From: a virus | Lineage: Duplodnaviria > Heunggongvirae > Uroviricota > Caudoviricetes | DNA length: 64,000 nucleotides | Direction: 5' to 3' (one strand) | IMG/VR virus record: IMGVR_UViG_2713896899_000007 | Coordinates: 7,041-71,040 of that record | Notes under the pieces: generated by a model | The model's input: only the letters and a program-made list of their open reading frames with translations | Database searches by the model: none | What the model was told of the DNA's origin: nothing | Made by a program: the position numbers and the translations under genes | Shown: in pieces, positions 6,901 to 34,315 of the stretch | How the letters are laid out: each line of letters starts with the position of its first letter | How positions within the stretch are numbered: position 1 is the first letter of the stretch

Positions 6901-8582
6901 GGAGTCTGTATGGCGGTCGCCATCGTGGCAAAGGTGCTAACCATCTGGCTGCCAGCGCCAACTCCCCCCATGATCCCTGCTCGCATCAGTTTGAACGCAA
7001 CCATCGCGGCCACGACCTTACCGAGATTAATTACCAGCTCTTGGTTCTTTGCTAACCATTGAGCAAGCTGACGCAACCCATCGATTGCCGTCGTTAACCC
7101 CGAACCTAAAGAATTGGCAAACGAAATCCCTTCGGCGCTATTCATGATTGAAGCCAGTTCTTTCATCCCCTTTGATAGAGAATCCAGATATCCGGCCTGA
7201 CCAACTCGATCAGCAAATAACGTGAATGACGTCTGAAGTTGCGCCAGCGCACCTGTGTAGGTTTGCATCATGTCTTTCGCTGCGTTCTCGTTCTCCGCAC
7301 GCAGACCAACAAACATCAGAGACAACGCCTGCTTTGCCTCAACCGTACCGCTGGCAACGGCTTTAGTTAGTTCCCCCATAGTGATGCCTGCGGCGTCTGC
7401 CATTGCCTGCATCGCGTTAGGAACGGCTTCACCTAATTGCTGACGTAGCTCTTCCATTGACACGACGCCCTTACCGGACATCTGCTGAACGGCCACAGCC
7501 GCACGTTTCAACAGCTCACTATCACCACCAAAACGAGCAACGGAGTCCACCAGCGCCTTCAGAGAACCATCGGTTGGATCTAAGCCAGCAGAACGAAACT
7601 TCACGAAGGAGTCTGTTAACGCCTGCATCGCGAACGGCGCATTTTGAGCCATGTCTACGATGTACTTCATATCATCAGCGGCAGCCTGGCCAGGGTTGGA
7701 CTTCTCCTTATTCAACCCTCGAAGCATCACCCGCATACGTTCCATTTCGGCCGCAGCTTCAACAATAGGCTTCTGCCACCCAAACATGATGTCAGTAACC
7801 GTTCTGGCTGCATCTCCGATCTCGCCAAGCAGGAAAATGTTGCCACGAAGGCCAGAGAACATACCTCCTTCGTTATTTTTACCGCTGTGGCCAGAAGCGC
7901 CGCTACGCTGCCTGCTACCGCTACCACCATCGCCACTTCCAGATGTACGAACGCGTACCGGCTTGCTAATCAGTTGCTGACGTCCGATAACTTCGTCCAT
8001 CTGCTCACGAACCTTTTTCAGTCCCTCGGCAGCCTGACTCGTTGTGACACCCCAATTACTGAGTCGCTTCGTCGTGGTATTAAGGCGCGTATTCATGCCA
8101 CTCACGGACGCAGAGGCTTCTTTGACCTCCGTACCAAAGCGGCTTGCGCTTTTGCTTGCATAGGTCGCCCAATCAGAGAAATCATTTAGCTCTGATTGCA
8201 CTTTACGTAATGACGCGGTGAGTTTATCTACTGAAGAAGTTGTCGTATCGACGCGCTCAATCAGGGCTTTAAGACCAGAATTGAGGCTGGTGATGTTGCC
8301 ACGCATTTTACGCGTAGCATCTGAAGCAAGCTCAAAACCGGCAGCTACATCCTGTAGTTTATCTGCCGTAGAATCGAGCTTGCTTTCCAGAACGCCAATG
8401 ATACGGGCGACCGAACCCAAAGAGCGTTCAAAGGTTTGGATTTTTTGAGCAGGCTTTGTTACCTGCTCACCAAATCGAGTAAGCAGTTTCCCCGCACGAT
8501 CGATTGACGCTGTAAACTGTTTGTCTTCCAGCGACAGGATAAACTCTACGTTTTGTGACATTCCCTTGTCATCCTCTGCCAA
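3996..8582 (-). CDS. tail tape measure protein
   Basis: 1528 aa, coiled-coil rich with central hydrophobic/Gly-rich segments. Lies between the chaperone genes and the M-like gene. The start is ambiguous (TTG 8582 or ATG 8561). Confidence 0.9.
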   Translation of the reverse strand: MAEDDKGMSQNVEFILSLEDKQFTASIDRAGKLLTRFGEQVTKPAQKIQTFERSLGSVARIIGVLESKLDSTADKLQDVAAGFELASDATRKMRGNITSLNSGLKALIERVDTTTSSVDKLTASLRKVQSELNDFSDWATYASKSASRFGTEVKEASASVSGMNTRLNTTTKRLSNWGVTTSQAAEGLKKVREQMDEVIGRQQLISKPVRVRTSGSGDGGSGSRQRSGASGHSGKNNEGGMFSGLRGNIFLLGEIGDAARTVTDIMFGWQKPIVEAAAEMERMRVMLRGLNKEKSNPGQAAADDMKYIVDMAQNAPFAMQALTDSFVKFRSAGLDPTDGSLKALVDSVARFGGDSELLKRAAVAVQQMSGKGVVSMEELRQQLGEAVPNAMQAMADAAGITMGELTKAVASGTVEAKQALSLMFVGLRAENENAAKDMMQTYTGALAQLQTSFTLFADRVGQAGYLDSLSKGMKELASIMNSAEGISFANSLGSGLTTAIDGLRQLAQWLAKNQELVINLGKVVAAMVAFKLMRAGIMGGVGAGSQMVSTFATMATAIQTPFNLGATAVTRFNRAARMGLAPIPSLIFAIRGAITGLKGAFAGLTAFIAANPIGAAFTVATVAVAGLITYMTMLRSETSKVVDEIRKIPEAMTAAKRAQMAEYKARLEQQITQKEQELKSGEKVVYGPGMAGTTVKINQDERKRIENELNDLRKKRDKTTGAIERGDIAVAKRLAKDAAESQIEKIREENRDFAATFAKARQEALEKIQKINDDDSLSDDEKNKLLAPLRETVNKSYLEPAQKLVDSLSSRKNAVEGQIATLNDQLEKAKKEGNTEQIKKLQGSIRGYQENLEVVAQELTQAEFERDNAAKTGKGVMSNQGTVLGLGTTDKAAQKALAQYMRNQMDSATYQRTLPDGTPMMDFEGKPIIGPKQLKTQLNLQKASSASSLEKMSDEERAAAIAALTKAREQDAAAAEKAAQRSANASQRAAKKEQAAQQKLAAGYQKALDKADQLMGQMGESSKATVSFDQSLRDTTKSLTDLANAVPNEFITQEMIDKAKKRLEDLKNATPEYREMFNRRNVEQMISTWAPEADSIISAGYTPSREEKVADFEDTYNRNLKALIELRDKASDPKVVALYTKKINQLIAAGNTALIKETGTATQKLALEYENLAEQIESTWTDLFSGLTDVLTDFVINGKMSFSSLSQSILKDITNMVVKSQITLPLMNMLGMGTTAAGSSQSGNLLTGVASAVANQGVRMGNTVNGDKSVGEATKETSSSVTGLGQTTQQTTSAIGTATNAIGSWVSGLFDSTEAKDAETKAVKDSIFSMQNLSSVTGALSAAFAMLGANASGSGNKWLNFGATVASGLVSVWAGGGFDSVTSSSAKTATSSVADGTKGIPAIPKFANGGIFGKDGVIPLRAYQKGGIANSPQLALFGEGSMNEAYVPLPDGRTIPVTLSTDGMSGGGNVLSPVSIEINVHSDGSTTESGDTESIWNNAAKRVKAVVLETIAQEKRPGGSLNPNTQRN

Positions 8583-18991: not shown

Positions 18992-19086
18992 AGATCCCTC
19001 TAAAACACACAGAGCGCGTCCATGCGCTCTAAAACAACTTGTTTACTGCGTATGCTAACCAACTTGTTTTCTGGGGTGTTTAATTA

Positions 19087-19463: not shown

Positions 19464-20354
19464 TTATGCCGGTAAAGCAATTTCTAACGGTTTATCCAAA
19501 GGTTGTTTGTCGAATGCCAGCAGTGGCAGCGTGTCAGGCAGTCGACGACCAAAGTCAGGGTTTCGATACACACCATACAACGGAGACGTAAAGCTCAGGT
19601 TGTGAATGTCCTTGAGCAGCTTCACAATGCTGGCCTCGTCCACCAGACTGTCGGCAATGTCCTGAATCGTCGTGCCACGATTCCGCCCAGCTTTTGCCAG
19701 GGAACTGTTCTTGTGGTAGTCCGCCACCAGATCACGCAGTGCACGGCGACGACGAGACTCGCTCATTGCGAACAACTCTTTGACGATCGCCTCGTTATCA
19801 CCCGGGTCAGAACGGAAATGGCGCTGGAATACACGCAGTGCACTTTCATAGCTCTTCGGTCGCTCAGGGCGGATGAACTTAAACCCCGCTTTCATGGCGA
19901 AGGGATTGTATTTGCTCATCGAGGACTGGATCTCAATGATTGGCCGGTCATGCATCCTGCTAACCAGGTTAATCATTCGATAAGAGACGCCTACGCCACG
20001 ATACTGAGTATCCACAACTGAGCGACTGATCACCGCAAAGTTGTTATTCACGTACCGACCCCAGTACTGGTTAGCCACGGTGGTATTAGTGGTTGGTTTC
20101 AACTTAGGAAACATGCGGTGGCGAGGTGCCAACAGTAGTTTCGGGTAAGCCATAACCACGACGCCCACCAGACGGTCATCAAGTTCGCAGCGATAGTAAG
20201 TTGGCGCGAAAGGTTTGCCGTCTGTTTTGTAGTGAAGCGACTTAAGAGCGTGCCAGTCCTCTACAGTTCCCTTTGTAACAGTCATTCGCTCCAGAAAGTC
20301 CAGATGACGCGGAAACTCTTCAGGGCGGTAGCGTTTAATGATGATGTCCGTCAT
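19464..20354 (-). CDS. GNAT-like acetyltransferase-domain protein
   Basis: VVDTQYRGVGVSYRMI fits the GNAT Q/RxxGxG/A acetyl-CoA loop. 296 aa. ATGA-coupled to the upstream ATPase. Confidence 0.5.
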   Translation of the reverse strand: MTDIIIKRYRPEEFPRHLDFLERMTVTKGTVEDWHALKSLHYKTDGKPFAPTYYRCELDDRLVGVVVMAYPKLLLAPRHRMFPKLKPTTNTTVANQYWGRYVNNNFAVISRSVVDTQYRGVGVSYRMINLVSRMHDRPIIEIQSSMSKYNPFAMKAGFKFIRPERPKSYESALRVFQRHFRSDPGDNEAIVKELFAMSESRRRRALRDLVADYHKNSSLAKAGRNRGTTIQDIADSLVDEASIVKLLKDIHNLSFTSPLYGVYRNPDFGRRLPDTLPLLAFDKQPLDKPLEIALPA

Positions 20355-21016
20355 GAATGGACCTCATCGTGACTACCATTGTGATATTCCACCTTCACGC
20401 GTTCTTTGTAGTGCTTGGTGATCTGCATATCCGGGCGCAGCGCGTTCTTCAGGTCTTCGTGAGTCGTCGCCACCATTACCGTCGCACCAACCTTTCGAGC
20501 GGCACGCTGGAGGTTAGACGCCACAACCTGAGCGGTTACACGGTCGAGAACAGCGCCGAACTCGTCAGCAGCCCACACTTTAGCGTCTGACTCAATCAGT
20601 TTGGCAATCTTGAGACGATATTTCTGGCCGTCTGACATTTCAGAAGGCTTGCGAACAAACAGATATGCATCGTTCAGACCAGCCATAGATAACAACCCAA
20701 GCGCATCACTGGTCGTTTTGCCCAACTGATCGATGACGTTAACCTCATTATCGAAGGTAAAATCATCGATGGAGGCTACAGACAGCCCTTCATCCTTCAT
20801 CTGTCGTTGCAACTCGCGCAGCACAACGGATTTGCCGGAACCGGATTGGCCGGTGATGTACACCACATCGCCCTGCTTCACTTCCAGCTCCAGATTGTCG
20901 TAAAGCGTCCACTCTTTTTCGTCCAGGCCAAGCCCGAACGACTCAGCGATTTCCAATGTGCGCGTGGTTTTATTTACGCGTGTCTGAAACGATACGTTGA
21001 TGATGTATTTGCTCAT
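20351..21016 (-). CDS. ABC-type ATPase (stand-alone nucleotide-binding domain)
   Basis: Walker A GQSGSGKS, signature MSDGQKYRL, Walker B VWAADEF. Confidence 0.8.
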   Translation of the reverse strand: MSKYIINVSFQTRVNKTTRTLEIAESFGLGLDEKEWTLYDNLELEVKQGDVVYITGQSGSGKSVVLRELQRQMKDEGLSVASIDDFTFDNEVNVIDQLGKTTSDALGLLSMAGLNDAYLFVRKPSEMSDGQKYRLKIAKLIESDAKVWAADEFGAVLDRVTAQVVASNLQRAARKVGATVMVATTHEDLKNALRPDMQITKHYKERVKVEYHNGSHDEVHS

Positions 21017-21681
21017 GCAGCCATCTCCCCGGAAGAGATCTTCTCCGCATATGCCACAAATGCGTCTACCCCGCTTTCTCCCGTCATTTCTTCCATGTGG
21101 GCAAGCAAATCACCAACAACAATGGCAGAGCCAGCAGGGAGCGTTTTAAAGCCCAATACGTCGACAACACGTACTTCTTCCGCTGCAACTTCACGACTGA
21201 TCTCGGTGTGTTCATCCTTCTGTCGTTTAGTTTCTTCGCCAAGATCGATAACTAGCGAGTCGGTGTCCATTTCTTCTGTCATACTGCCAACGAGAACATT
21301 CAACTCACGCTCTTCAAAGCCGAAAACCTCGATATCGTCCAGAACAAGCGACTCAAGCTCTTTCTGTAGCTTAATTGCATCGTAATCAATGCTGGCAAGT
21401 CGGTTATCTTCAAGGCGCTTCGCACGAACCTCGTCATCACTGAGATCATCGCGAACAATAACCGGTACGCGCTCAAGTCCAGCAAAAATTGCAGCCTCAC
21501 GGCGGCCGTGGCCAGTAATAATTACGTCGTTCTTATCGACCGTAATTGGCTGGTCAAATCCGCGCTTTTTAATGGCTGCGGCTAGATCTCGGATCTGCTG
21601 TTCATCATGCTTTTTGGCATTCATCTCATAGGGAATAAGATCTGCCGGGTCGCGATATACGATTTCAAACTTTTTGGTCAT
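21013..21681 (-). CDS. ParB-like nuclease (ParB/Srx) domain protein
   Basis: ITGHGRREAAIFAGLERVPVIV motif. ATG 21681 overlaps the upstream TAA (TAATG). Confidence 0.8.
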   Translation of the reverse strand: MTKKFEIVYRDPADLIPYEMNAKKHDEQQIRDLAAAIKKRGFDQPITVDKNDVIITGHGRREAAIFAGLERVPVIVRDDLSDDEVRAKRLEDNRLASIDYDAIKLQKELESLVLDDIEVFGFEERELNVLVGSMTEEMDTDSLVIDLGEETKRQKDEHTEISREVAAEEVRVVDVLGFKTLPAGSAIVVGDLLAHMEEMTGESGVDAFVAYAEKISSGEMAA

Positions 21682-22361
21682 TACATACGCTCCTTGTAGT
21701 AGTCGACCAGCCACACCAGAGCCTCACCAGCGTTCTCCATTTCATTACCGGTGTTAATAGCCTGCTCTTTGATGATGTTTTTTATGGTTTCTGCAACACG
21801 ATCTGACGCATCGAAAGTTACTTTGAAGCGCATGGTCTGATGTTCCGCACCCACACGTTCGGTTTTCTCCCGTTTGTCGGTATCGACAGGCTCATCACTA
21901 CCACGAGACAACGCCTCCAGTGCTTCAAGGTCGATTGCCGCCTCTTTTGCTAAAACCATCGAGATTTCGTCGTCATACGGGGCGATTTCAGACAGTTGAT
22001 AGTCAAGTTCTGACTGAATTTCTTCAATGAAGCGTTGCAATGCGATTTGGTCGTCTTCACCGTATCGCTCGTTGTCCACCAGTGACATCTGTTTTGCCAC
22101 GACATCGCTAATTTTGCCCACAGAAAGCACCGGAACCGTTGAAATTCCTTGCTCAATAGCAGCACGCCAGCGATGTTCGCCGCCGAGGATTTCAAAAAAT
22201 CCATCTTCAAGTTCACGAGCCAAAATTGGCTTAAAAAAGCCCAATTTTTCGATAGAACCTTTCAGTTTTTCAAAATTCTGCGCACCAACCGAATTGGTGT
22301 TCCAGGTATTCGGGCGAAGGTTGGCAACATCAACCTGCAAAATCGTGATTTTTACATCCAT
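21681..22361 (-). CDS. ParB-like nuclease (ParB/Srx) domain protein
   Basis: ILGGEHRWRAAIEQGISTVPVLSV motif. ATG 22361 is preferred over GTG 22379. Confidence 0.8.
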   Translation of the reverse strand: MDVKITILQVDVANLRPNTWNTNSVGAQNFEKLKGSIEKLGFFKPILARELEDGFFEILGGEHRWRAAIEQGISTVPVLSVGKISDVVAKQMSLVDNERYGEDDQIALQRFIEEIQSELDYQLSEIAPYDDEISMVLAKEAAIDLEALEALSRGSDEPVDTDKREKTERVGAEHQTMRFKVTFDASDRVAETIKNIIKEQAINTGNEMENAGEALVWLVDYYKERM

Positions 22362-25565: not shown

Positions 25566-26165
25566 ATGAAAATGAAAATTTCGTTACTCCTTGCTTGTAT
25601 ATGCCTCCCGGCGTTTTCCGCCAACGCATTATCAGATTTCGTCTCTGACATGCAAAAAACGTACAGCATGTTTACCTCCGAAGACGTAGTAGAATACAAA
25701 TCACGAGGTCTGAATCAGCCAGTTTGGTTCAGATTCTCAGACAACGCAGAAGAAACAATACTTAATGGAGGAAAAGAAAGATTACGGTTGCAAATTAACG
25801 GGACCGCTGTACCAGAAAACGTTAATGTAAACTCTGACGAAGCCATGAAGCCATCTGGAATTGTTTTAGAAGTTCAAGACGGCACACTTTACTGTGATGA
25901 AATGGCTACAACAGGTTGCCAAGTAAACATTAGGGTTGGCAATGAAGAGCCTATCGTTACTTACGCCAAGGCTGAAGGGAATACAAGTGGAAAGGTATTG
26001 TTTATCGATGAAAATATCTCAAAACGTATCGTTCGTGACATACAGAAAACAGCTAACTCTAAATCCGTCGATAAAAAAATCTATGTTGAGGTTCCCTTCT
26101 TTGTCGTTGGTAACAAAGAATTTAAATTTGGGTTGCTGAAAACACCTCTAAGAGTATCAGAATGA
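25566..26165 (+). CDS. secreted/periplasmic hypothetical protein
   Basis: The N-terminus MKMKISLLLACICLPAFSANA looks like a Sec signal peptide. ATG 25566 is preferred over TTG 25551. Confidence 0.6.
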   Translation: MKMKISLLLACICLPAFSANALSDFVSDMQKTYSMFTSEDVVEYKSRGLNQPVWFRFSDNAEETILNGGKERLRLQINGTAVPENVNVNSDEAMKPSGIVLEVQDGTLYCDEMATTGCQVNIRVGNEEPIVTYAKAEGNTSGKVLFIDENISKRIVRDIQKTANSKSVDKKIYVEVPFFVVGNKEFKFGLLKTPLRVSE

Positions 26166-26686
26166 GAACATTGGACATCACCTACGGCATACCGGCTGAA
26201 GTCTGGCCGCGAGACTACGAACATGCTGAAAACATACTTATGTTCTGGCGGAAGAACAACATTCCTGTAAGAGTCACGCTTGAAGACGGTCAGGTGTTTT
26301 GCATGTACGTTCAGGGGACAATGCCTTCCCGCAATAAGCTAGATTTATGCCCGCTTCCATATGATAAAGAAAATCGTATAAGACTCCCACTTGAGCGCAT
26401 TAGCACAATTGAATCAGGTGTAATCGATGGCATTGCTCGCGAGTTCAAAGGTAGGCTAACAATACATCCAGACTATGTTGACAATCAGCCATCACGCCGT
26501 GACTTTTTTGCGATATGTCGCAAGGCTTATCAAAACGACCAATCTATAAGGGTCTACATGGCAGACGGTCGTGAAATTGAAGGGGTGTCAAGAGGCGTTG
26601 ATGCTTGCCAGGTCACTCTTAAGTTAGAAGACGGCAGAAAAATACTTGTTTTCTTCGATTGGGTTGAACGAATCCTTCCATTTTAA
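26162..26686 (+). CDS. hypothetical protein with two Sm/LSm-like repeats (pattern level only)
   Basis: ATGA overlap with the upstream gene. VRVTLEDGQVF..YVQG and IRVYMADGREIEGVSRGVDACQVTLKLEDGRKILVFFDWVERI fit the Sm-fold pattern V.V.L.dG..i.G...g.D...l.L. Confidence 0.5.
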   Translation: MRTLDITYGIPAEVWPRDYEHAENILMFWRKNNIPVRVTLEDGQVFCMYVQGTMPSRNKLDLCPLPYDKENRIRLPLERISTIESGVIDGIAREFKGRLTIHPDYVDNQPSRRDFFAICRKAYQNDQSIRVYMADGREIEGVSRGVDACQVTLKLEDGRKILVFFDWVERILPF

Positions 26687-26981: not shown

Positions 26982-27632
26982 ATGGCTAACATTATCATTT
27001 CTAAAAAATCCATCATTGAAGCTGCTTCCATTGTATCCGATGAACTGCGCGAAAAAGCAGATCTGGCAACTCAAACATATAACGAACATTATAAAAATGG
27101 TACGCACACTAAAGCAGACAAAGCAAATATGCAAGCTGCGACCACTAAACTTGCTTACTTCATCAACAACGTCGTAAACGCAGTAGAAGACGAAAAATTA
27201 TGCTCTGTTTTCTACTATGCGATTAAAGCAAGCAAACAAGCGCCAGAAGTATTTTTCCGTGATGCTATGACTAATAGTTATTCACTGGAAAAACTGGTTT
27301 ATCTGGTTAAATCCATTAAAGCTGGTAAATGCGTTTATTCCGTCGCTGATATGTCAGGATCTCGTGTATTCGCTTTAATCGATATGATTAACGACGAGAT
27401 CGACACGTTCACCAATGGCGCTGTTTTCGATTTAATGAATGAAGCTAAAAAAGCGTGCGAAATTAAATTGGACGCTGGCTATACTCAAGCCAACCAGTTG
27501 ATCAATCTTTGCGAACGTCTCGGACTTGTTGAAAAAGTCAAAGGAGCTGGGAGCGCCAAAGCTGGTACGCAGCAATATCGCTTCATTAAAAATGATTTCT
27601 ACAATTATTTAGCTGATGCTTTTAAAGCGTAA
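26982..27632 (+). CDS. hypothetical protein (possible C-terminal winged helix)
   Basis: ATG 26982 lies 8 nt after AAGGA. 216 aa. YTQANQLINLCERLGLVEKVKG is HTH-like. Confidence 0.55.
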   Translation: MANIIISKKSIIEAASIVSDELREKADLATQTYNEHYKNGTHTKADKANMQAATTKLAYFINNVVNAVEDEKLCSVFYYAIKASKQAPEVFFRDAMTNSYSLEKLVYLVKSIKAGKCVYSVADMSGSRVFALIDMINDEIDTFTNGAVFDLMNEAKKACEIKLDAGYTQANQLINLCERLGLVEKVKGAGSAKAGTQQYRFIKNDFYNYLADAFKA

Positions 27633-27681
27633 TTAATGAAATCAAGCGCCCACTATGGGCGCTTTAAAGGAGCTTTCAAAA

Positions 27682-27885
27682 ATGGTCAGCTATGACAAGA
27701 TCCGCGCGGAATATCGCGCAAAGTATCGCGCTTATAAACTGGAATTAATCGACGATTTGATCGCGCAACGCGACCAATTAAATTTTACGTTTTCTGATTT
27801 GCTTAACAGTAAACGAGATTGTAAGCGTAAGCGTGAATATTTACGTTTAAGCGCATTAATCGGAAAACTTCAAAATTCTATTTAA
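27682..27885 (+). CDS. small basic coiled-coil hypothetical protein
   Basis: ATG 27682 follows an AAGGAG RBS. The track start at 27655 lies inside a hairpin. Confidence 0.45.
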   Translation: MVSYDKIRAEYRAKYRAYKLELIDDLIAQRDQLNFTFSDLLNSKRDCKRKREYLRLSALIGKLQNSI

Positions 27886-27905
27886 TTTTTTTAAGGAGCT
27901 TAATC

Positions 27906-28133
27906 ATGGTTATTTTCATCTCTGGCGTAAATATCAATAATCATACTCTTGTTTATGATATTGCTGGTTTAGCTGGATATGCTCTAAGTTCTGAAGTGGT
28001 TGATGAAACAACGTTTAAAATAAACATCAATGACGTAGAACATAGAGCGCGCGTAGGAATCAATGAAGCTGATGTTACTTTAATGCTTCAAGAATTTTTA
28101 AACGCTGGCTTTAATATTCACTTAGAAAAATAA
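27906..28133 (+). CDS. small hypothetical protein
   Basis: 75 aa, AAGGAG RBS, followed by a strong terminator. Confidence 0.5.
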   Translation: MVIFISGVNINNHTLVYDIAGLAGYALSSEVVDETTFKININDVEHRARVGINEADVTLMLQEFLNAGFNIHLEK

Positions 28134-28140
28134 AAACAAT

Positions 28141-28165
28141 AGCGCCCACTATGGGCGCTTTTTTC
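28141..28165 (+). terminator. rho-independent terminator (agcgcccactatgggcgct + T6)
   Basis: Perfect hairpin plus a T-run. The identical 21-mer also occurs at 27643-27663. Confidence 0.8.
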
Positions 28166-28625
28166 GTTTACAATACACCCACCATAACGCGCCAATAATG
28201 GCGCTTTTTTATTGTCTTTAACTCACTCCAACAACATAAAAATAAGCGCCAAAATAACGCCATAGACGCGCTTTTATATCCTTGTCAGTACATACCCATT
28301 ACTTAACACATTAACGCGCTTAAAATGCGTTATATTGCGCTATAACGTATGGCTAATCATTAATTTTTATTCTTGCTATGTGATCCGCGTTTAATTGTCG
28401 GCGCGGATCGGCATTTTGTTTTGTTCCGTATCCGCTCGCGTATTATGTGCGCGTGATTTTTCACATAATCACACCACTTAATCACGTATGTGATTATGCT
28501 ACGAAAGAAATCTGGATGTCTCAGGCGACGAAAGTCATCATAATTTTCCCCGCTCACCTGTCCGACAACCGCTGGTTGGATTCCACCAGCTTCCCGATGT
28601 TTTTTCTACATAAAGGCGAATGCAG

Positions 28626-28738
28626 CCGTTTCCCGAAAAAATCCTGGCCGTTTCCCGTCGGCTCATGAATGCGTTCCTTGCCGTTTCTGAAAATTTCCCT
28701 GCGGCAGCTGGTGGCTATAGAGAAAGGGCCGTTTCTGG
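28626..28738 (+). repeat. iteron cluster A (CCGTTTCCCGAAAA-type)
   Basis: Copies at 28626, 28648 (22 bp apart) and 28681. A further copy at 28729 lies inside a hairpin. Confidence 0.6.
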
Positions 28739-28750
28739 CCCTCTTCTCAG

Positions 28751-29233
28751 TTACACGCCATCAAGGATGTGGATGCGGTTGCTTGCGTATACATTCAGCA
28801 TAAAGTTAGCGCAAAACAGTTTCCATGTATCAACGCCAGCGGTATACGTAATGTTTTTGCATTTAATTGCATTGTTGGCGATCTGCGTAGCCAGTGATAT
28901 GGCTTCATGGTCAGTAAAGCCGTATGACGTTTGGGTCTTCATCCAGACAGAAATCTGCGTAGCGAACTCAATCAGCTTGGACTGGCAGAATCGCCCGGAG
29001 CGCACCGGAAAGACGAACGTTCCGAATCCAGAATTTACCACATACGCTTTCTCAAATACCCGAGAGTAACGACGATTGCCAATGATGTCGCGTGCAATAA
29101 TGCATTTTTCTTGTTCTGACAGTTCTACCGTCTCATTGTGACGCCAGGCACCAAGTACTCGTTTTTCAATGTCAGAGAACGTTACAGCGATATTGCCATG
29201 TGCGGGTGCGTTTACAGTAGCGATAAAATTCAT
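28751..29233 (-). CDS. hypothetical protein
   Basis: 160 aa. Has its own conserved promoter (29251-29287) and a hairpin terminator (28726-28743). Confidence 0.6.
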   Translation of the reverse strand: MNFIATVNAPAHGNIAVTFSDIEKRVLGAWRHNETVELSEQEKCIIARDIIGNRRYSRVFEKAYVVNSGFGTFVFPVRSGRFCQSKLIEFATQISVWMKTQTSYGFTDHEAISLATQIANNAIKCKNITYTAGVDTWKLFCANFMLNVYASNRIHILDGV

Positions 29234-29250
29234 GATTAATTCCTTATCGT

Positions 29251-29287
29251 AAATAACAAATTGTTTTCTTGTTGGCGTTAATTATCG
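29251..29287 (-). promoter_or_regulatory. conserved early promoter/leader element
   Basis: Minus strand reads CGATAATTAACGCCAACAAGAAAACAATTTGTTATTT, a member of the roughly 10-copy family. Confidence 0.55.
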
Positions 29288-29438
29288 TTGTACGAATAAG
29301 GCGTCAAAGTGGAAAGTTGCGGTAGCCGGACGGGAACAGGTGGGTTTGTCGGTTGCCTGGAGGTAAGAGGTTGGTGTTTTTAGCCTGCGGGGAACAGGAT
29401 GGTCATTTAAGGCCACCAGCGTTAACTGGTGGCGTTTG

Positions 29439-30137
29439 TCATGCTGGAATCATATCTAATTGAAAAGATTCCATTATATATGTTGGTTCATCGATGTAGT
29501 CCTTCAGCCTATTGTCAAATGACTCAAGCGGATTGTATGGCGGATGATGCCGCTCCGAGTATTCATTTAAAAGATGCCCCATTATCAGTTCGATACCCAT
29601 CTCTACTCCTGAAACTCCGAACCATACATTGTGCGTTAGTTGCTGGGCGTCTGTATCCAGTACGCGAACGCCATCAACAAGATTTATTAGATTCCTGTGG
29701 TTTTCGTGTACTGTAACCTCTCCGCTGGTTAAGTCTATTTCAGCGAGAAAATATGGTCTTTTGCTTCCGTCGGACTTTTTGAAATGACCGTCATAAGCGA
29801 TAGCAAACCACGCTTTACTAAAGTCCTTGTTGGCGTAAGTGGTGCACATACAACTAGGATAATCATCAATGTTAAACCAATCAGGAAACGGATCATCTTT
29901 AGACGAGCCAGCAAAATCATCAGCTAGTTCGTAGCTAATGTCTGGGTTGTACTTGCTGACAAAATCATCTACATCCTCTACATCCTCAACACCTTTCCAA
30001 ACTTTACATCTCTCCGACCAAAAGAATCTCGCAATATCCGAAATGACTGGGAAACGTTTTTCAATTGAATTTATCAACTCTGCATGTTCTTTAAGAGATT
30101 TACGCTTGTTGATAAGCTTCTGAAGATGCGTACTCAT
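29439..30137 (-). CDS. hypothetical protein
   Basis: 232 aa ORF. GATAAT-type promoter at about 30165 with an upstream palindrome at 30188-30210. Confidence 0.6.
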   Translation of the reverse strand: MSTHLQKLINKRKSLKEHAELINSIEKRFPVISDIARFFWSERCKVWKGVEDVEDVDDFVSKYNPDISYELADDFAGSSKDDPFPDWFNIDDYPSCMCTTYANKDFSKAWFAIAYDGHFKKSDGSKRPYFLAEIDLTSGEVTVHENHRNLINLVDGVRVLDTDAQQLTHNVWFGVSGVEMGIELIMGHLLNEYSERHHPPYNPLESFDNRLKDYIDEPTYIMESFQLDMIPA

Positions 30138-30251
30138 TTTTAATTCCTCGTTTGTTTTTGATGTGATAATTATCGCAGTCAGATTAAGGCAGAAAACAAA
30201 TTGTTATCGGGCATAAGAAAATGGCGCGGTTTACGCGCCATTTAAAGAGGA

Positions 30252-30647
30252 TTAAGCGAATACGCTTTCAGGGATTAAGGTGTCAGCAGGAATGCCGGAG
30301 GTAATACGCAGACCGTACTGACCAATCCAGGTGGTGCTGGTGTTCAGGCTGGAGGTGAATACGGAATTAACCATATTCATCATGGTTTCAAACACCTCTT
30401 CATCAACCTGGCGGAAGTAGTTCTCGATTTTCAGCAGCAGCGGGTCAGTTGCATCGAGAATGGACTGGTATTGCGTCGCGTACTCGCCGCCGGAGGCATC
30501 ACCTTTACGCACGATCGTACTGGCCTGTACTTCGGCACCAGTTTCGGTGTTGTACGTAACAACGGTGATTTTTGCCACATTCTTACCTTCGGCGGTTTCA
30601 GAGGCATAGTAAACATCAACTGTCAGTTTTTCGCGTTTAACGGTCAT
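30252..30647 (-). CDS. hypothetical protein
   Basis: 131 aa ORF followed by hairpin aatggcgcg...cgcgccatt (30221-30243). Confidence 0.6.
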   Translation of the reverse strand: MTVKREKLTVDVYYASETAEGKNVAKITVVTYNTETGAEVQASTIVRKGDASGGEYATQYQSILDATDPLLLKIENYFRQVDEEVFETMMNMVNSVFTSSLNTSTTWIGQYGLRITSGIPADTLIPESVFA

Positions 30648-30690
30648 TTCACTCTCCGTAGTGTCTTGGTTATTTTTCTATTTTATAGCC

Positions 30691-30706
30691 GTAAGTATGT
30701 ACTTAC
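30691..30706. repeat. TAAGTA-type palindrome GTAAGTAtgTACTTAC
   Basis: Perfect 7-bp arms, upstream of the 30647 start. Confidence 0.6.
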
Positions 30707-30773
30707 AATACAAAAAAGCCCCGTAAGGATGGCGGGGCTGTCGTACTGTCGACTAATTACCACTTGCACATTA

Positions 30774-31085
30774 TCAGGCTATTGCCATCACTGATGCTCT
30801 CTGAATTTCTTGTTGGGCCACGCGGTTAACTTCCATCAAAGCCAGTTCGAGCTGATGTTCCGGCCACATTCTTTGAAATGCCACCCAGCCTTTTCCACGC
30901 TGGCGACGAACATTCATTACATAACGAGTAAAGGTGTTTTTATCGAAAGACACCGCTGTTTCACGGAACAGACGAATAGAGGTTCCATTGGCAACGATGT
31001 CCAGCAAAGTTAATTGAGCAACTAGCGCAGGCTTCTCTTTTCGCTTCTGGTCTTTGTCCAGACCAAGAACCAATGATTTTTTCAT
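30774..31085 (-). CDS. hypothetical protein
   Basis: ATG 31085 has a GGAG RBS. About 103 aa. Conserved promoter at 31095-31131. Confidence 0.55.
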   Translation of the reverse strand: MKKSLVLGLDKDQKRKEKPALVAQLTLLDIVANGTSIRLFRETAVSFDKNTFTRYVMNVRRQRGKGWVAFQRMWPEHQLELALMEVNRVAQQEIQRASVMAIA

Positions 31086-31094
31086 CACAACTCC

Positions 31095-31131
31095 GTAAAC
31101 AACTTGTTTTCTCAATGGCGTAAATAATACC
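31095..31131 (-). promoter_or_regulatory. conserved early promoter/leader element
   Basis: Minus strand reads GGTATTATTTACGCCATTGAGAAAACAAGTTGTTTAC. Confidence 0.55.
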
Positions 31132-31238
31132 AGTAAGAAAACGGCTACAAAGCATAATGATCAGGTGCATGATCGATATGCAGGTTCCTCCCTGCGGCTA
31201 TAGAGAAATTAAGCCAGCATTGCTGGCTTTGGTTGAGG

Positions 31239-31568
31239 TTACGCGAATACTTCAAGAAACTCCTGAACGTCCCAATGCTGGACAAGGTGAAGATAGACCT
31301 TAGAAATCACGTCATTCTCGCTATCGCATGTGAAGTAGTACTTCTGGCTGCGGTTGTATGTGTCCACACAAAATTCGCTCATATCCATAAAGTCAGCATC
31401 TTCTCCCATGTCGCAAATCATCAAAGCAGGTGCGTCATCACGAGTCATCAGCTCAAGCACCCACCGCGAATTGATCAGAGTGGAAGACCAACCTTCCAGC
31501 TCACAGAACTGGTCAAACTCTTTTTGAGTCAATTTCTTAATTTGGTTGATGTCGATATGTGCAAACAT
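31239..31568 (-). CDS. hypothetical acidic protein
   Basis: ATG 31568 has a TAAGGA RBS. ATG 31589 lies inside the promoter motif. Confidence 0.55.
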   Translation of the reverse strand: MFAHIDINQIKKLTQKEFDQFCELEGWSSTLINSRWVLELMTRDDAPALMICDMGEDADFMDMSEFCVDTYNRSQKYYFTCDSENDVISKVYLHLVQHWDVQEFLEVFA

Positions 31569-31578
31569 AAAGCAATCC

Positions 31579-31614
31579 TTAAACAACATGTTTTCTTATT
31601 GGTGTTATTATCGC
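31579..31614 (-). promoter_or_regulatory. conserved early promoter/leader element
   Basis: Minus strand reads GCGATAATAACACCAATAAGAAAACATGTTGTTTAA. Confidence 0.55.
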
Positions 31615-31928
31615 AATAACGCACAGGCGAAAAAGGATTTTATTCCGGTGAATGTGGTTTTGGCAGTGAGTTTTCAGGTTCAGTACCGAGTACACTTTTT
31701 ACATTATTCTGATTTAGTGGCCGAAGATGGCTGGTGGGCAGAATAATCCTCTCCCCGAAAACCTACTGAAATCGATTGTGACCCGCTGGCTGTCTGGCAC
31801 AATTACGCTGTAGCTGGGCATTCAGAGGGAATCCAGCGGTAAGTTCGCCTGCACGTGAGCGCCTCTCTTCTTACCGCACATTACAGGTGGGTAGCCGCAA
31901 CTCTCCCTCACGCTATACCGGTACGCCA

Positions 31929-32060
31929 CCGTTCCTGAACCGGCATCGAGCCTTTTCCCGAAATCCACACAGGCAACTCTACCGTTTCCCTGAAAATCCC
32001 CAGCCGTTCCCCGAAGGCAACCCAGCCGTTTCTGTAGCGGGATGCAGCCTTTCCCTGTAT
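31929..32060 (+). repeat. iteron cluster B, six copies phased at 22 bp
   Basis: Copy starts at 31929, 31951, 31982, 32004, 32026 and 32048. Consensus is cAGCCGTTTCCCtGAAAA. Confidence 0.75.
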
Positions 32061-32119
32061 GGACCGAAGGCTGACCGTAGGGGTGTTACGGGGGATAAAA
32101 TCAGGAGTTGAATAAATAC

Positions 32120-32990
32120 GAAAAAGGAGGCGACACCCCTACTTCCCTCTCCACTTATACATACCAGGCTTCTTCGCTATACATGTTGTGTTTTCTTCGT
32201 GTTTTATCTGTCTCAACCTCTCTATAGGCGTTAATGCTCACTCCTACCAGAACGTTCTATACGGCGACTATTTCTGTTGGTGGATTAGGTGTGTTGTTTT
32301 CTCTGTCGGTGTATGTGGTTTCGTTCGTTTTGCGGTGGTTCTTCTATGGGGTGTTCTCGTCGTTTTGGTGATTGTTCTTCTCCGTATATGGAGTAATGGC
32401 AGGTGGGCGATTGCTTTCGTTATTGTGTTTGAGTTGTTTGTCTGGAGTGTGTGAAAGGCTTTTGTAGTTATTCGTGTATTGGGTAATGGCGTTTCCCGTG
32501 ATTGTTATGTTTCGTGTCTTTTGGGATTGAGAGAAACCTTGCGGTTACAGGCTTCGTTGGGGTTTCAGTGATTCTGGTGTTTCTTCGCTGTTTGGGGAAT
32601 GGCGTGTCGTGGGTATCGCGCGTGTGAATGTTTTCGGATTGCCTGTGAAAGTTAGGTTGGTTATCCGGTAGCCTGGGAAGAAGAGGTGGGTCTTTTCGGT
32701 AGCCTGCCATAAAGAGGTTGGTTGTTTTTGGGAATGGCATGTGTGTTATTTAGTTGTTTTGTTATGCCTGAAAATAAGTTGTTTATATGGTTGTGTAACG
32801 CAACGGGAGCGATTTTGAGCGTGTGTTTTTGTTGGTAGTGTGTTGAGTCGTCTGTGGTGAAAATTGGACGCTGTGGAGCTGTCTGCTGCGTAGGATTACG
32901 GGTATAAGAAGTGATGTGTGAAAACGTCAATTTTTTAGACCAAATCGGGAGAAAGCGTTGATGTTTCGTTGATCTGTTATTTAGTTGTTT
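32120..32990 (-). ncRNA. candidate long C+A-rich untranslated transcript (hypothetical)
   Basis: A family promoter at 32974-33006 points into a stretch with no credible ORF. The plus strand is 72-85% G+T in the three 60-nt lines I counted. The ends are not defined. Confidence 0.25.
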
Positions 32991-33006
32991 TCTTATTGGT
33001 ATAAAC
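32974..33006 (-). promoter_or_regulatory. conserved early promoter/leader element with no downstream ORF
   Basis: Minus strand reads GTTTATACCAATAAGAAAACAACTAAATAACAG. A partial second copy lies at 32745-32765. Confidence 0.5.
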
Positions 33007-33136
33007 AACTGTAACCTATTGATATTTAAGGATGTGATTGCAGGCATGGAAGGGGAGTAGTGGCGATCAACGGATTCTTATAGAAAAGAATCAAATTGTG
33101 ACCGCCATTATCAACGGTTTGAATATGTTTGCAGAT

Positions 33137-33436
33137 TTACCAGTTCCAGCACTCAAGCCCTTCAACGACCGGCGCACCACAATCAAAATGTACAGAGTCA
33201 AAGCCTACATCAAGTACTTTCTGAATGTTAGCAATCGCGCCTTCGGATATACCATATCGACGCAAGTCGTCTTTCCAGACATCATCCTGTAACCCGGCGT
33301 GGACAATACAACCGCCATCAATTTGTGAAACCCAATCCAGCTCATTGCTTGCGATCATGAATCGGCGAGCATCTTCCTCTGATGTATGAGATGAACTGAT
33401 CAATGCCACCTGGTAGGCTTGGGTAATGTTCAACAT
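33137..33436 (-). CDS. DUF5983-like small protein (recollection of plasmid/prophage family)
   Basis: The ALISSSHTSEED...VHFDCGAPVVEGLECWNW pattern (ISTSH...HFD....L.G...W end) fits the family as I recall it. ATG 33436 has a GGAG RBS. Confidence 0.55.
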   Translation of the reverse strand: MLNITQAYQVALISSSHTSEEDARRFMIASNELDWVSQIDGGCIVHAGLQDDVWKDDLRRYGISEGAIANIQKVLDVGFDSVHFDCGAPVVEGLECWNW

Positions 33437-33447
33437 TTCAACCACTC

Positions 33448-33517
33448 CAAAACAAGTTGTTTTCTTATGTGGCTTATTATCTCTAACAACAAAAGGCAGA
33501 AAACAAATTGTTTTAGG
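33448..33517 (-). promoter_or_regulatory. early promoter with two AAAACAAnTTGTTTT palindromes flanking GATAAT
   Basis: Minus strand reads CCTAAAACAATTTGTTTTCTGCC...GAGATAATAAGCCACATAAGAAAACAACTTGTTTTGG. Confidence 0.6.
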
Positions 33518-33636
33518 TACTGTGTAAATCAGAAGGGATTGTGTCTATATGAAAATGCCCGGCGTGTTGCCGGGCATTGCGAAGAGAGGTTGTTTAATTA
33601 CTTAACCTGGTGGCCAGGTTTAGCACCGGCATCCGG
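33496..33636 (-). repeat. diverged copy of metG 3' end (12 codons + stop) + terminator + phage palindrome
   Basis: Aligns without gaps to 34364-34504 with 18 mismatches. The remnant encodes [12 protein letters not shown]. Confidence 0.9.
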
Positions 33637-34315
33637 CTGCAGGATGGGAGGTTACGTTCGCGCTATGTTGATATTCTGATTGACGCCATTTGTGCCAAAT
33701 CATCTCCTTATAGGATTCATATTGCGTTCGGTACTCTGGCTTCAAGTCAGATATGCCTTTATTCACTACCGCTCGTACGTTTACTAATAATTCGTGCTCA
33801 ATGCCTTTACTCTCTAAATATTCTACAACACCAGCATCGGGGCCAATTGCCCTGCCGTTAAAGACCATTTCCAGCATAAGCTCTGTTTCAGCAAAATAGA
33901 TAGGTGAGGAACCAGGTGCACACAGCTTAATAGCAGTAAGATTGTCCAACAGGTCGGCCAATTTAATCATTCGCGTCTGCATATCCAACGTCTTTTGCAA
34001 TTCGCGAACATTAATAATGAATCTCGCAAGACTATCGCCGTCGTCTGGTTTGGCAACGTTTGCCAGCGCCAGTACCATCTCAGCTACACGATTCCCGAAA
34101 TACTCGCGTACCATTTCGATAGTGATATGGGTATCTTCAATAACACCATGTAATAATGCAGCAGCCTGCATTTCGACAGTGCCTCCGTGCCAAGCAACAA
34201 TCTCACGCACAGAAACTGGGTGTGTAACGTAGTCTTCCCCCGTATATCTACGCTTCTTACCTACACCACCATACACTCCAACGGCAAACATATGAGCTTT
34301 ATCAACAATCGACAT
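33620..34315 (-). CDS. HD-domain (SpoT/Mesh1-like alarmone hydrolase family) protein, HD motif changed to HG
   Basis: GEDYVTHPVSVREIV...AALLHGVIEDT. Paralog of 42687..43328. ATG 34315 has a GGAG RBS. The C-terminal tail runs into the metG remnant. Confidence 0.75.
   Translation of the reverse strand: MSIVDKAHMFAVGVYGGVGKKRRYTGEDYVTHPVSVREIVAWHGGTVEMQAAALLHGVIEDTHITIEMVREYFGNRVAEMVLALANVAKPDDGDSLARFIINVRELQKTLDMQTRMIKLADLLDNLTAIKLCAPGSSPIYFAETELMLEMVFNGRAIGPDAGVVEYLESKGIEHELLVNVRAVVNKGISDLKPEYRTQYESYKEMIWHKWRQSEYQHSANVTSHPAAGCRC

Follow-up and report, generated by a model that had tools for sequence, protein, structure and literature searches.

Phased iteron-like repeats in two clusters in the non-coding DNA of an SSU5/pHCM2-type phage-plasmid and their possible role in replication

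Phased, iteron-like binding arrays are a well-known kind of feature. The satellite phage P4 has two clusters of initiator-binding repeats, ori and crr, both of which act in cis. The centromeres of type Ib, II and III partition systems, such as parC1/parC2 of pB171, parC of R1 and tubC of pBtoxis, are typically short direct repeats in two clusters; these are bound cooperatively by a small DNA-binding protein, and in a phage-plasmid the centromere can lie far from the par genes. Here we describe two arrays of direct repeats in a stretch of 64,000 nucleotides (IMG/VR record IMGVR_UViG_2713896899_000007, positions 7,041 to 71,040; hereafter the window) from an Escherichia coli phage-plasmid of the SSU5/pHCM2 type. 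By megablast of positions 27000-34000 the window is 99.6% identical to p009_B (NZ_CP048306.1, 110,182 bp), and the phages PhiR41_1, CMS-2020a and Cyrano are 92-97% identical to it. What is unusual here is that the arrays are orphans, far from rep and par genes, that they form two clusters, that they are associated with a large, strand-skewed non-coding locus and that they are tied to a tiny family of uncharacterised proteins. The function that we rank first is that of a phage-mode replication origin or replication-control site, to which we give a probability of about one in three (0.35).

The two arrays are:

31928..32060, plus strand: cluster 2, six direct repeats of RCCKTTYCC with CC starts at 31929, 31951, 31982, 32004, 32026 and 32048, placed by motif scans and alignment

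28625..28693, plus strand: cluster 1, three in-phase direct repeats (GCCGTTTCCC / GCCGTTTCCC / GCCGTTTCTG) with CC starts at 28626, 28648 and 28681

The six copies of cluster 2 (CCGTTCCTG at 31929, CCTTTTCCC at 31951, CCGTTTCCC at 31982, CCGTTCCCC at 32004, CCGTTTCTG at 32026 and CCTTTCCCT at 32048) are all on the plus strand and are spaced, start to start, by 22/31/22/22/22 bp. The spacings in cluster 1 are 22 and 33 bp. An earlier reading made from the letters alone (the sequence-only reading) had placed the six same-orientation copies correctly, and its observation that the motif recurs 3.3 kb away at 28626, 28648 and 28681 is borne out. Its count of four spacings of 22 bp and one of 31 bp also stands, though the four are not all consecutive. 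As only about 10 nt are common to the copies, the 18-nt consensus that it put in its title was too generous; the common core is 9-10 nt (RCCKTTYCC) and the 3′ GAAAA is present in some copies only.

Both arrays have the repeat layout expected of an iteron-type Rep replicon, at least three same-orientation direct repeats in a register of about 22 bp, with six and three copies respectively. When up to one mismatch is allowed, GCCGTTTCCC occurs seven times in the 64 kb, always on the plus strand, with six of the seven inside the two clusters. The looser pattern CC[GT]TT[TC]C gives six matches within 140 bp at cluster 2, compared with a maximum of three in 200 first-order Markov simulations of the window. 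In a position weight matrix derived from ten copies, a self-trained test, the copies score 13.8-25.8 bits and nothing else in the whole 110-kb plasmid exceeds 12.4 bits. The arrays are thus confirmed as real: they exist, are phased, are confined to two loci and go beyond chance.

Both clusters lie within DNA annotated as non-coding, and the sequence-only reading of the repeats as phased, iteron-like and of one orientation is supported for this SSU5/pHCM2/pMT1-type phage-plasmid:

28134..28750, no strand: gap 1, 617 bp annotated as non-coding, where a plus-strand block and minus-strand genes converge; it contains terminator-like hairpins and cluster 1

31570..33142, no strand: gap 2, 1.57 kb annotated as non-coding, of which 31900-33125 is conserved family-wide; it contains cluster 2, an AT-rich block, a G+T-skewed region of 900 bp and further repeat families

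Gap 2 is the largest non-coding region of the element and has cluster 2 at its left end, and cluster 1 is the best-conserved block within gap 1.

The conservation of the arrays was investigated in representatives of SSU5, pHCM2, pMT1, Cyrano, pLAO18 and the Klebsiella, Enterobacter, Citrobacter and Cronobacter elements. Gaps 1 and 2 are found at 67-78% identity in around 800 PLSDB plasmid records from Escherichia, Klebsiella, Enterobacter, Salmonella (pHCM2), Citrobacter and Cronobacter; gap 1 matches 778 plasmid records, including 55 from Yersinia, and is kept in Yersinia pestis pMT1, which retains only cluster 1, intact. Cluster 1 has spacings of 22 and 33/34 bp across the representatives, and is kept in pMT1, pHCM2, SSU5 and the Klebsiella and Cronobacter relatives. 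Cluster 2 has the spacings 22/31/22/22/22 in SSU5, pHCM2, Cyrano, pLAO18 and the Enterobacter and Citrobacter elements. The Klebsiella array carries a 9-bp deletion, giving 22-bp spacing throughout, and the Cronobacter array has lost exactly one 22-bp unit. The sequence-only reading had made its case depend on conservation of the motif in relatives, and there the motif is strongly conserved.

Within the arrays the cores are far better kept than the DNA between them. Across the clade representatives the cores are 97% identical in cluster 1 and 81% in cluster 2, and the spacers 63% and 47% respectively; none of 10,000 permutations reached the difference between core and spacer seen in cluster 2. 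The larger insertions and deletions (indels) within the array or next to it measure 9, 10, 11 or 22 bp, close to whole turns of the helix, which suggests a face-of-the-helix constraint on the DNA, and the distance from the array to the AT-rich block shifts by 10 or 11 bp between clades. Taken together, the core-versus-spacer conservation and the indel sizes have the appearance of a footprint of sites that are read on one face of double-stranded DNA.

Neither a protein nor a structured RNA accounts for the conservation. A hidden protein-coding gene at gap 2 was rejected as the substitutions lack 3-periodicity and the indels are not multiples of three. The open reading frames CYRAN_104 and SSU5_108/109, annotated over the region in Cyrano and SSU5, are not conserved, and their translated similarity is what a nucleotide identity of about 70% gives by itself; in the RefSeq relatives no coding sequence (CDS) is annotated over the arrays. 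A search of Rfam gave no relevant match at E <= 1. The RNAalifold covariation terms were positive on both strands (+1.8 and +0.31 kcal/mol), giving no covariation support, and single-sequence folding gave z-scores of +0.84 and +1.13, no more stable than shuffled sequences. It would therefore seem probable that the arrays act as DNA and not as RNA.

A neighbouring gene nevertheless raises the alternative that the repeats function in a transcript:

26162..26686, plus strand: FljA-like protein, a member of PF03614 (Flag1_repress; E = 5.4e-81) and the alternative, RNA-level candidate binder

Salmonella FljA is a post-transcriptional repressor of phase-1 flagellin that binds the fliC mRNA leader, a binding reportedly described by Yamamoto and Kutsukake in 2006, a study cited in PMC2652032. 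The FljA-like gene is conserved in pHCM2, pMT1 and SSU5, and by analogy the phage-plasmid may repress host flagellin through its product. Minus-strand transcripts, the sense of all the local genes, would carry the repeats as yCrGGGAAACGGC, and the FljA-like protein might bind these as a multi-site operator or decoy. The strength of the Pfam match supports the idea, as does the leader of E. coli fliC, which contains TGAGCCGACGGGTGGAAACCC where the minus strand of the second copy in cluster 1 reads TGAGCCGACGGGAAACGG; the 12-mer that they share, TGAGCCGACGGG, exceeds in length every other match to the leader in the window. The proposal was, however, formed after the match had been seen, so a coincidence statistic on it is not valid, and about 0.5 such 12-mers are expected somewhere in the 64-kb window. 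The 12-mer is not kept in the pHCM2-type relatives, and two further relatives, L185 and L134, have no FljA-like gene at the syntenic place and still keep copies of the motif. The whole-helical-turn indels favour DNA, and no RNA structure or covariation was found. We regard this reading as very improbable. That the arrays, as mimics of the leader of host fliC mRNA, titrate the FljA homologue of the element is a more exotic possibility still than the family-wide lytic origin considered below.

If the repeats are sites on DNA, the plasmid's own initiator is the obvious protein to consider, as the 22-bp register and single orientation are those of classical iteron arrays and many members of the family are typed IncFIB. 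The sequence-only reading had seen no classical RepA. This was an effect of the window edge, which excludes the gene from view: position x of the window is position x + 43,984 of NZ_CP048306.1, so the window spans 43,985-107,984 of the record and the last 2.2 kb and first 44 kb of the record fall outside it. A RepB-family (RepFIB-like) initiator is encoded at 110063..1095 of the record, about 2 kb past the window end, which places this RepFIB-type replicon some 34 kb from the arrays. It is flanked by 15 iterons of the sequence GTATGCTGYCAGCGGT, which differ from RCCKTTYCC with no similarity between the two, and GTATGCTGYCAGCGGT is absent from the window. The narrower claim that no rep gene stands beside the arrays is supported: the neighbouring genes that were compared with Pfam and PHROGs gave no Rep family.

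The replicon type, moreover, varies among the relatives (IncFIB, rep_cluster_488 and rep_cluster_763), and the arrays are unchanged in those of another type. With different iterons at its own Rep, and with arrays that stay constant as the replicon changes, the arrays are not the iterons of the element's Rep. That they are extra iterons of RepA, forming an incA-like copy-control or handcuffing array, is refuted at the sequence level and we consider it exceedingly unlikely. It follows that either the conserved backbone of the phage or the host encodes the binder, and, as the sequence-only reading held, the neighbouring genes do not by themselves identify it.

A ParB-type parS reading fares no better, as the repeats are asymmetric and not palindromic. 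Two proteins at 21.0-22.4 kb had been called ParB-like; each does match a ParB_N domain, and ParB_N only. They belong to a four-gene set on the minus strand at 19464-22361, beside the terminase genes, together with an ABC-type ATPase and a 296-aa protein. This set is present in every family member examined, distant ones included, and is not a recognisable partition system. A type Ia ParB/parS centromere, in which a ParB with an HTH domain binds a palindromic parS of about 16 bp beside parAB, was rejected because the repeats are asymmetric direct repeats and the ParB_N-only proteins lie in an operon beside the terminase genes with no ParA there.

A centromere of a different type deserves more weight. 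A backbone operon outside the window (31877-32904 of the p009_B record) encodes a type Ib ParA-like ATPase (222 aa, 32236-32904) and a 117-aa partner, both of which are kept in SSU5, in E. coli and Klebsiella phages and in plasmids of Salmonella, Enterobacter, Citrobacter and Cronobacter. There is no repeat array at this operon or within 2 kb of it, so its centromere has yet to be located. A parC- or parS-like site adjoining the operon was rejected, as there are no repeats there and the arrays are not next to it. The arrays themselves could be the centromere, coated by a small protein and segregated by the type Ib ParA, with the sites dispersed as in N15. Short direct repeats in two clusters are the layout typical of type Ib, II and III centromeres, and TubR is among the generic fold matches of the winged-helix protein described below. 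Against this, some 40 kb separates the arrays from the par operon, the 117-aa partner falls in no recognisable family of DNA-binding proteins and the ParA-like protein is itself a putative partition ATPase. pMT1 lacks this ParA (0 Yersinia records match) and yet has cluster 1 intact, although pMT1 derived too recently for cluster 1 to be expected to have decayed. On balance we consider this reading unlikely, and it ranks second among the functions considered.

A protein that may bind the arrays is encoded close to cluster 1:

26982..27632, plus strand: 216-aa family-specific protein, the candidate binder, with a long N-terminal helical hairpin and a C-terminal alpha-beta-alpha-alpha-beta-beta (winged-helix) topology in the AlphaFold2 model

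The model has a mean predicted confidence (pLDDT) of 81 and a predicted TM-score (pTM) of 0.69. In Foldseek its high-probability matches are all winged-helix DNA binders and none is significant. The family is small, with 23 representatives among 1.84 billion proteins. In all the relatives examined the gene is 0.55-1 kb from cluster 1 or from copies of the motif with a TTTCCC core, in the same synteny. The adjacency holds in L134, where the gene is inverted, and in L185, which has no FljA-like gene. Both the helix motif (Y/F)TQxxQxxxLxER(L/I/M)G, the putative recognition helix, and the TTTCCC core of the DNA are kept in the most distant members. It is quite possible, if somewhat short of an even chance, that the 216-aa protein binds the arrays; this is circumstantial evidence, from sequence and a predicted model, and not proof, and the protein stands as a candidate.

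The surroundings of cluster 2 are those that might be expected of an origin:

32077..32143, no strand: inverted repeat, GTAGGGGTGT / ACACCCCTAC, flanking a conserved AT-rich block of about 40 bp (GATAAAATCAGGAGTTGAATAAATACGAAAAAGG) and lying 17 bp right of the sixth repeat

The AT-rich block is conserved, is about 70% A+T and lies 17-35 bp right of cluster 2. A good inverted copy of the core (CCTTTCCCG, minus strand) is found in this block in Klebsiella and in the distant relative L187. The element has replisome genes of its own, for a DnaB-like helicase, a primase-like protein, Pol III alpha, a ligase and RNase H, and no lytic origin is given in the annotation of the near-identical record NZ_CP048306.1.

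We propose that a sequence-specific protein encoded by the backbone would bind the repeats as DNA sites on one face of the helix, and that the exchangeable plasmid Rep or Par modules would not be the binders. Most likely this would be the 216-aa winged-helix protein, several copies of which could load side by side on the six-site and three-site arrays to form a nucleoprotein complex. The arrays would then be the cis-acting site of a second, phage-mode replication origin or of a replication-control locus. Within the largest conserved non-coding region, cluster 2 would serve as an array of the initiator type, next to an AT-rich block that an inverted repeat encloses; cluster 1, at a distance of 3.3 kb, would assist it or pair with it by looping, in the manner of P4 ori and crr. 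This function is favoured because the layout is origin-like, the locus is the largest conserved non-coding one and the element has its own replisome with no mapped lytic origin. A bolder form of the proposal is that cluster 2 and the conserved, strongly G+T-skewed non-coding region of 1.2 kb are the lytic origin of the whole SSU5/pHCM2/pMT1 family, with cluster 1 as the looping or control partner. The 216-aa protein would then be a novel winged-helix initiator, restricted to the family and without sequence relationship to Rep or O proteins. This we think improbable.

Several observations weigh against a replication role. No protein of an initiator family was identified among those compared, and neither by sequence nor by profile does the 216-aa protein resemble the O-like or Rep initiators (hmmsearch; hhalign of the C-terminus, probability 0.8%). 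Its fold matches are generic and non-significant, and a model of the isolated C-terminal domain is poor (pLDDT 57). The palindromic AAACAAnTTGTTT operators, which are abundant in the region, would be just as suitable a target for a winged-helix dimer. The cumulative GC skew turns only at the repA region and passes the arrays without an inflection. No DnaA box is conserved, the sole match near the arrays (28457) included, and the AT-rich block is short and its A+T content modest for the purpose. Strict 22-bp phasing is not universal, since the distant relative L133 has spacings of 26/10/24 and 24/12/33. In the searchable literature we found no experimental work on the array region.

The arrangement of the genes suggests a further alternative. 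The plus-strand block that reaches cluster 1 encodes an SF2 helicase, five small proteins, the FljA-like protein, the 216-aa protein and two small proteins, and a minus-strand cassette of five small genes is bracketed by clusters 1 and 2. A regulator bound to the arrays, as an upstream activating or operator array, a roadblock or an insulator, would act on promoters close by, or would block read-through where the plus-strand block and the cassette converge. Cluster 1 is exactly where plus- and minus-strand transcription converge and cluster 2 is at the other end of the cassette. Promoter-like hexamers are found on the minus strand just left of cluster 1, a minus-strand TATAAG about 90 bp right of cluster 2 is kept in all relatives, distant ones included, and the array of L134 is in the upstream region of the winged-helix gene itself. 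The region is also dense in other regulatory repeats. There is, however, no consensus promoter at a fixed distance from the arrays across the clades, with 10- and 11-bp indels between the array and the conserved block, and six tandem sites over 130 bp with a second cluster 3.3 kb off would be heavy for a simple operator. The Cyrano transcriptome paper gives values at the level of the CDS only. Transcription control thus appears unlikely as well; of the functions considered, we rank a phage-mode origin or control site first, a dispersed centromere for ParA second, transcription control or a roadblock third and an RNA target of the FljA homologue last.

Gap 1 has one further feature next to cluster 1:

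28720..28745, no strand: hairpin, GAGAAAGGGCC-GTTTCT-GGCCCTCTTCTC, directly 3′ of the minus-strand 160-aa gene and holding a fourth copy of the core, out of phase, at 28729

The Chi site GCTGGTGG occurs 17 times in the 64 kb on both strands, compared with 1.5 expected. Near the arrays it is found at 28583 (minus), 28707 (plus), 29413 (minus) and 31730 (plus), and the copy at 28707, which adjoins cluster 1, is kept in all relatives. In the equivalent of gap 1 in L187 (9140-9195) three copies of TCTCAACCr, spaced by exactly 23 bp, are found immediately left of the TTTCCC-type repeats; these do not form an array in the window.

To the right of the AT-rich block in gap 2, positions 32225-33100 comprise about 900 bp of conserved non-coding DNA whose strands are extremely asymmetric, the plus strand being G+T-rich, with a GC skew of +0.3 to +0.56 and an AT skew of -0.2 to -0.68. 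It has no coding signal and no match in Rfam. Any minus-strand RNA of this stretch would be rich in C and A and lack structure, and one of the plus strand would be rich in G. Within it repeats of TTCTTCTCCGTrTATGGAGTAATGGC occur about 110 bp apart (around 32385, 32478, 32591 and 32726).

Two further repeat families were noted. A second iteron-like family, TAGCCTGnnnnnnAAGAGGTGGGT, with a spacing of about 30 bp, is present as three copies at 29323-29409, upstream of the 160-aa gene, and as two at 32662-32728 in gap 2. It is highly conserved in the relatives, and at the two loci it is ordered alike with respect to the RCCKTTYCC arrays, some 600 bp from them. We considered whether gap 2 had received a segmental copy of the 160-aa gene module and rejected this, as only short repeats are in common. 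The other family, AACAAnTTGTTTTCT, has the palindromic core AAACAAnTTGTTT and gives 27 matches in the window at up to two mismatches, compared with 0.85 expected. Its sites include 19029-19072, 26636, 29255, 30191, 31098, 31582, 32769, 33451, 33498, 34368, 38306, 43381, 46293, 47007, 47736 and 57956. Copies lie 10-40 nt upstream of many minus-strand start codons and also upstream of the terminase operon, and the family looks like an operator or promoter element that serves a global regulator at many sites, much as the C1 operators are scattered in P1.

Phage-plasmids of the SSU5/pHCM2/pMT1 type are common in clinical Enterobacteriaceae and include Y. pestis pMT1, Salmonella Typhi pHCM2 and carriers of resistance genes. 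The plasmid replicon of the family is annotated, and its phage-mode origin, the centromere of the backbone ParA and its regulatory circuitry are not. Two conserved, unannotated arrays and a 1.2-kb non-coding locus are obvious places to look for such functions; we found no description of either in the searchable literature and no record that annotates them. The arrays may offer a route to incompatibility, to copy-number control, to the switch in replication from lysogeny to lysis and to a function for a family of 'hypothetical' proteins. If the locus does prove to be a lytic origin, a second replicon and its switch would become open to direct tests, in a family that is widespread in the clinic and carries resistance genes.

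IMG/VR was scanned independently for two CCGTTTCC cores 22 bp apart, a query pattern that itself selects such arrays. Besides SSU5-like contigs the scan returned lambda-type origins in unrelated phages (L016, L032, L043, L116, L122, L124, L039, L090, L045 and L100). These have 5-7 contiguous, palindromic 22-bp iterons of the form GGATTCGGC-N6-GCCGTTTCC (GCCGWWTCC half), preceded by GATC-rich (GATCTGT) repeats. The iterons lie inside genes for O-like initiators of 320-365 aa, in the part that codes for the linker, and encode peptide repeats of the PNGNG type; the O-like gene of L124 carries a Phg_2220_C domain and the protein of L016 has no Pfam match. No O-like initiator homologue was supported in the element: the only tblastn matches were weak ones (E = 3-8), at the N-terminal end of the primase-like protein, and a profile hidden Markov model lent them no support (E = 28). 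The C-terminus of the 216-aa protein was likewise rejected as an O-like homologue on its hhalign probability.

The arrays resemble several described systems and differ from each of them. Like the repeat-array centromeres of pB171, R1 and pBtoxis, they are short direct repeats in two clusters. Known centromeres of this kind adjoin the par operon, N15 excepted, and the arrays here do not serve as an operator adjoining one but lie far from the parA-like operon; the dispersed sites of N15, for their part, are palindromes, unlike the asymmetric repeats here. With P4 ori and crr they share two clusters of short repeats in the same orientation a few kb apart. P4 differs in its alpha protein, a primase-helicase whose binding domain is known and whose repeats are octamers (TGTTCACC); no equivalent protein is linked to the arrays. 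Iteron plasmid replicons (P1 oriR/incA, RepFIB, F ori2 and pSC101) have same-orientation direct repeats, two-turn phasing and more than one cluster, as seen here; unlike these, our arrays have no adjacent rep gene and no conserved DnaA box, and the conserved core is only about 10 bp. The iterons of lambda-type origins are 22-bp palindromes (GGATTCGGC-N6-GCCGWWTCC) within an O-like gene, whereas the arrays have a single half-site per unit in non-coding DNA and so differ from a lambda-type ori in its defining layout. The two are alike in their register of about 22 bp, in which four to seven sites all face one side of the helix, and in the AT-rich block and inverted repeat that adjoin. The O-like origins of lambdoid type from the viral contigs also share with the arrays the half-site GCCGTTTCC at 22-bp spacing, a half-site and register that are used by true origin iterons.

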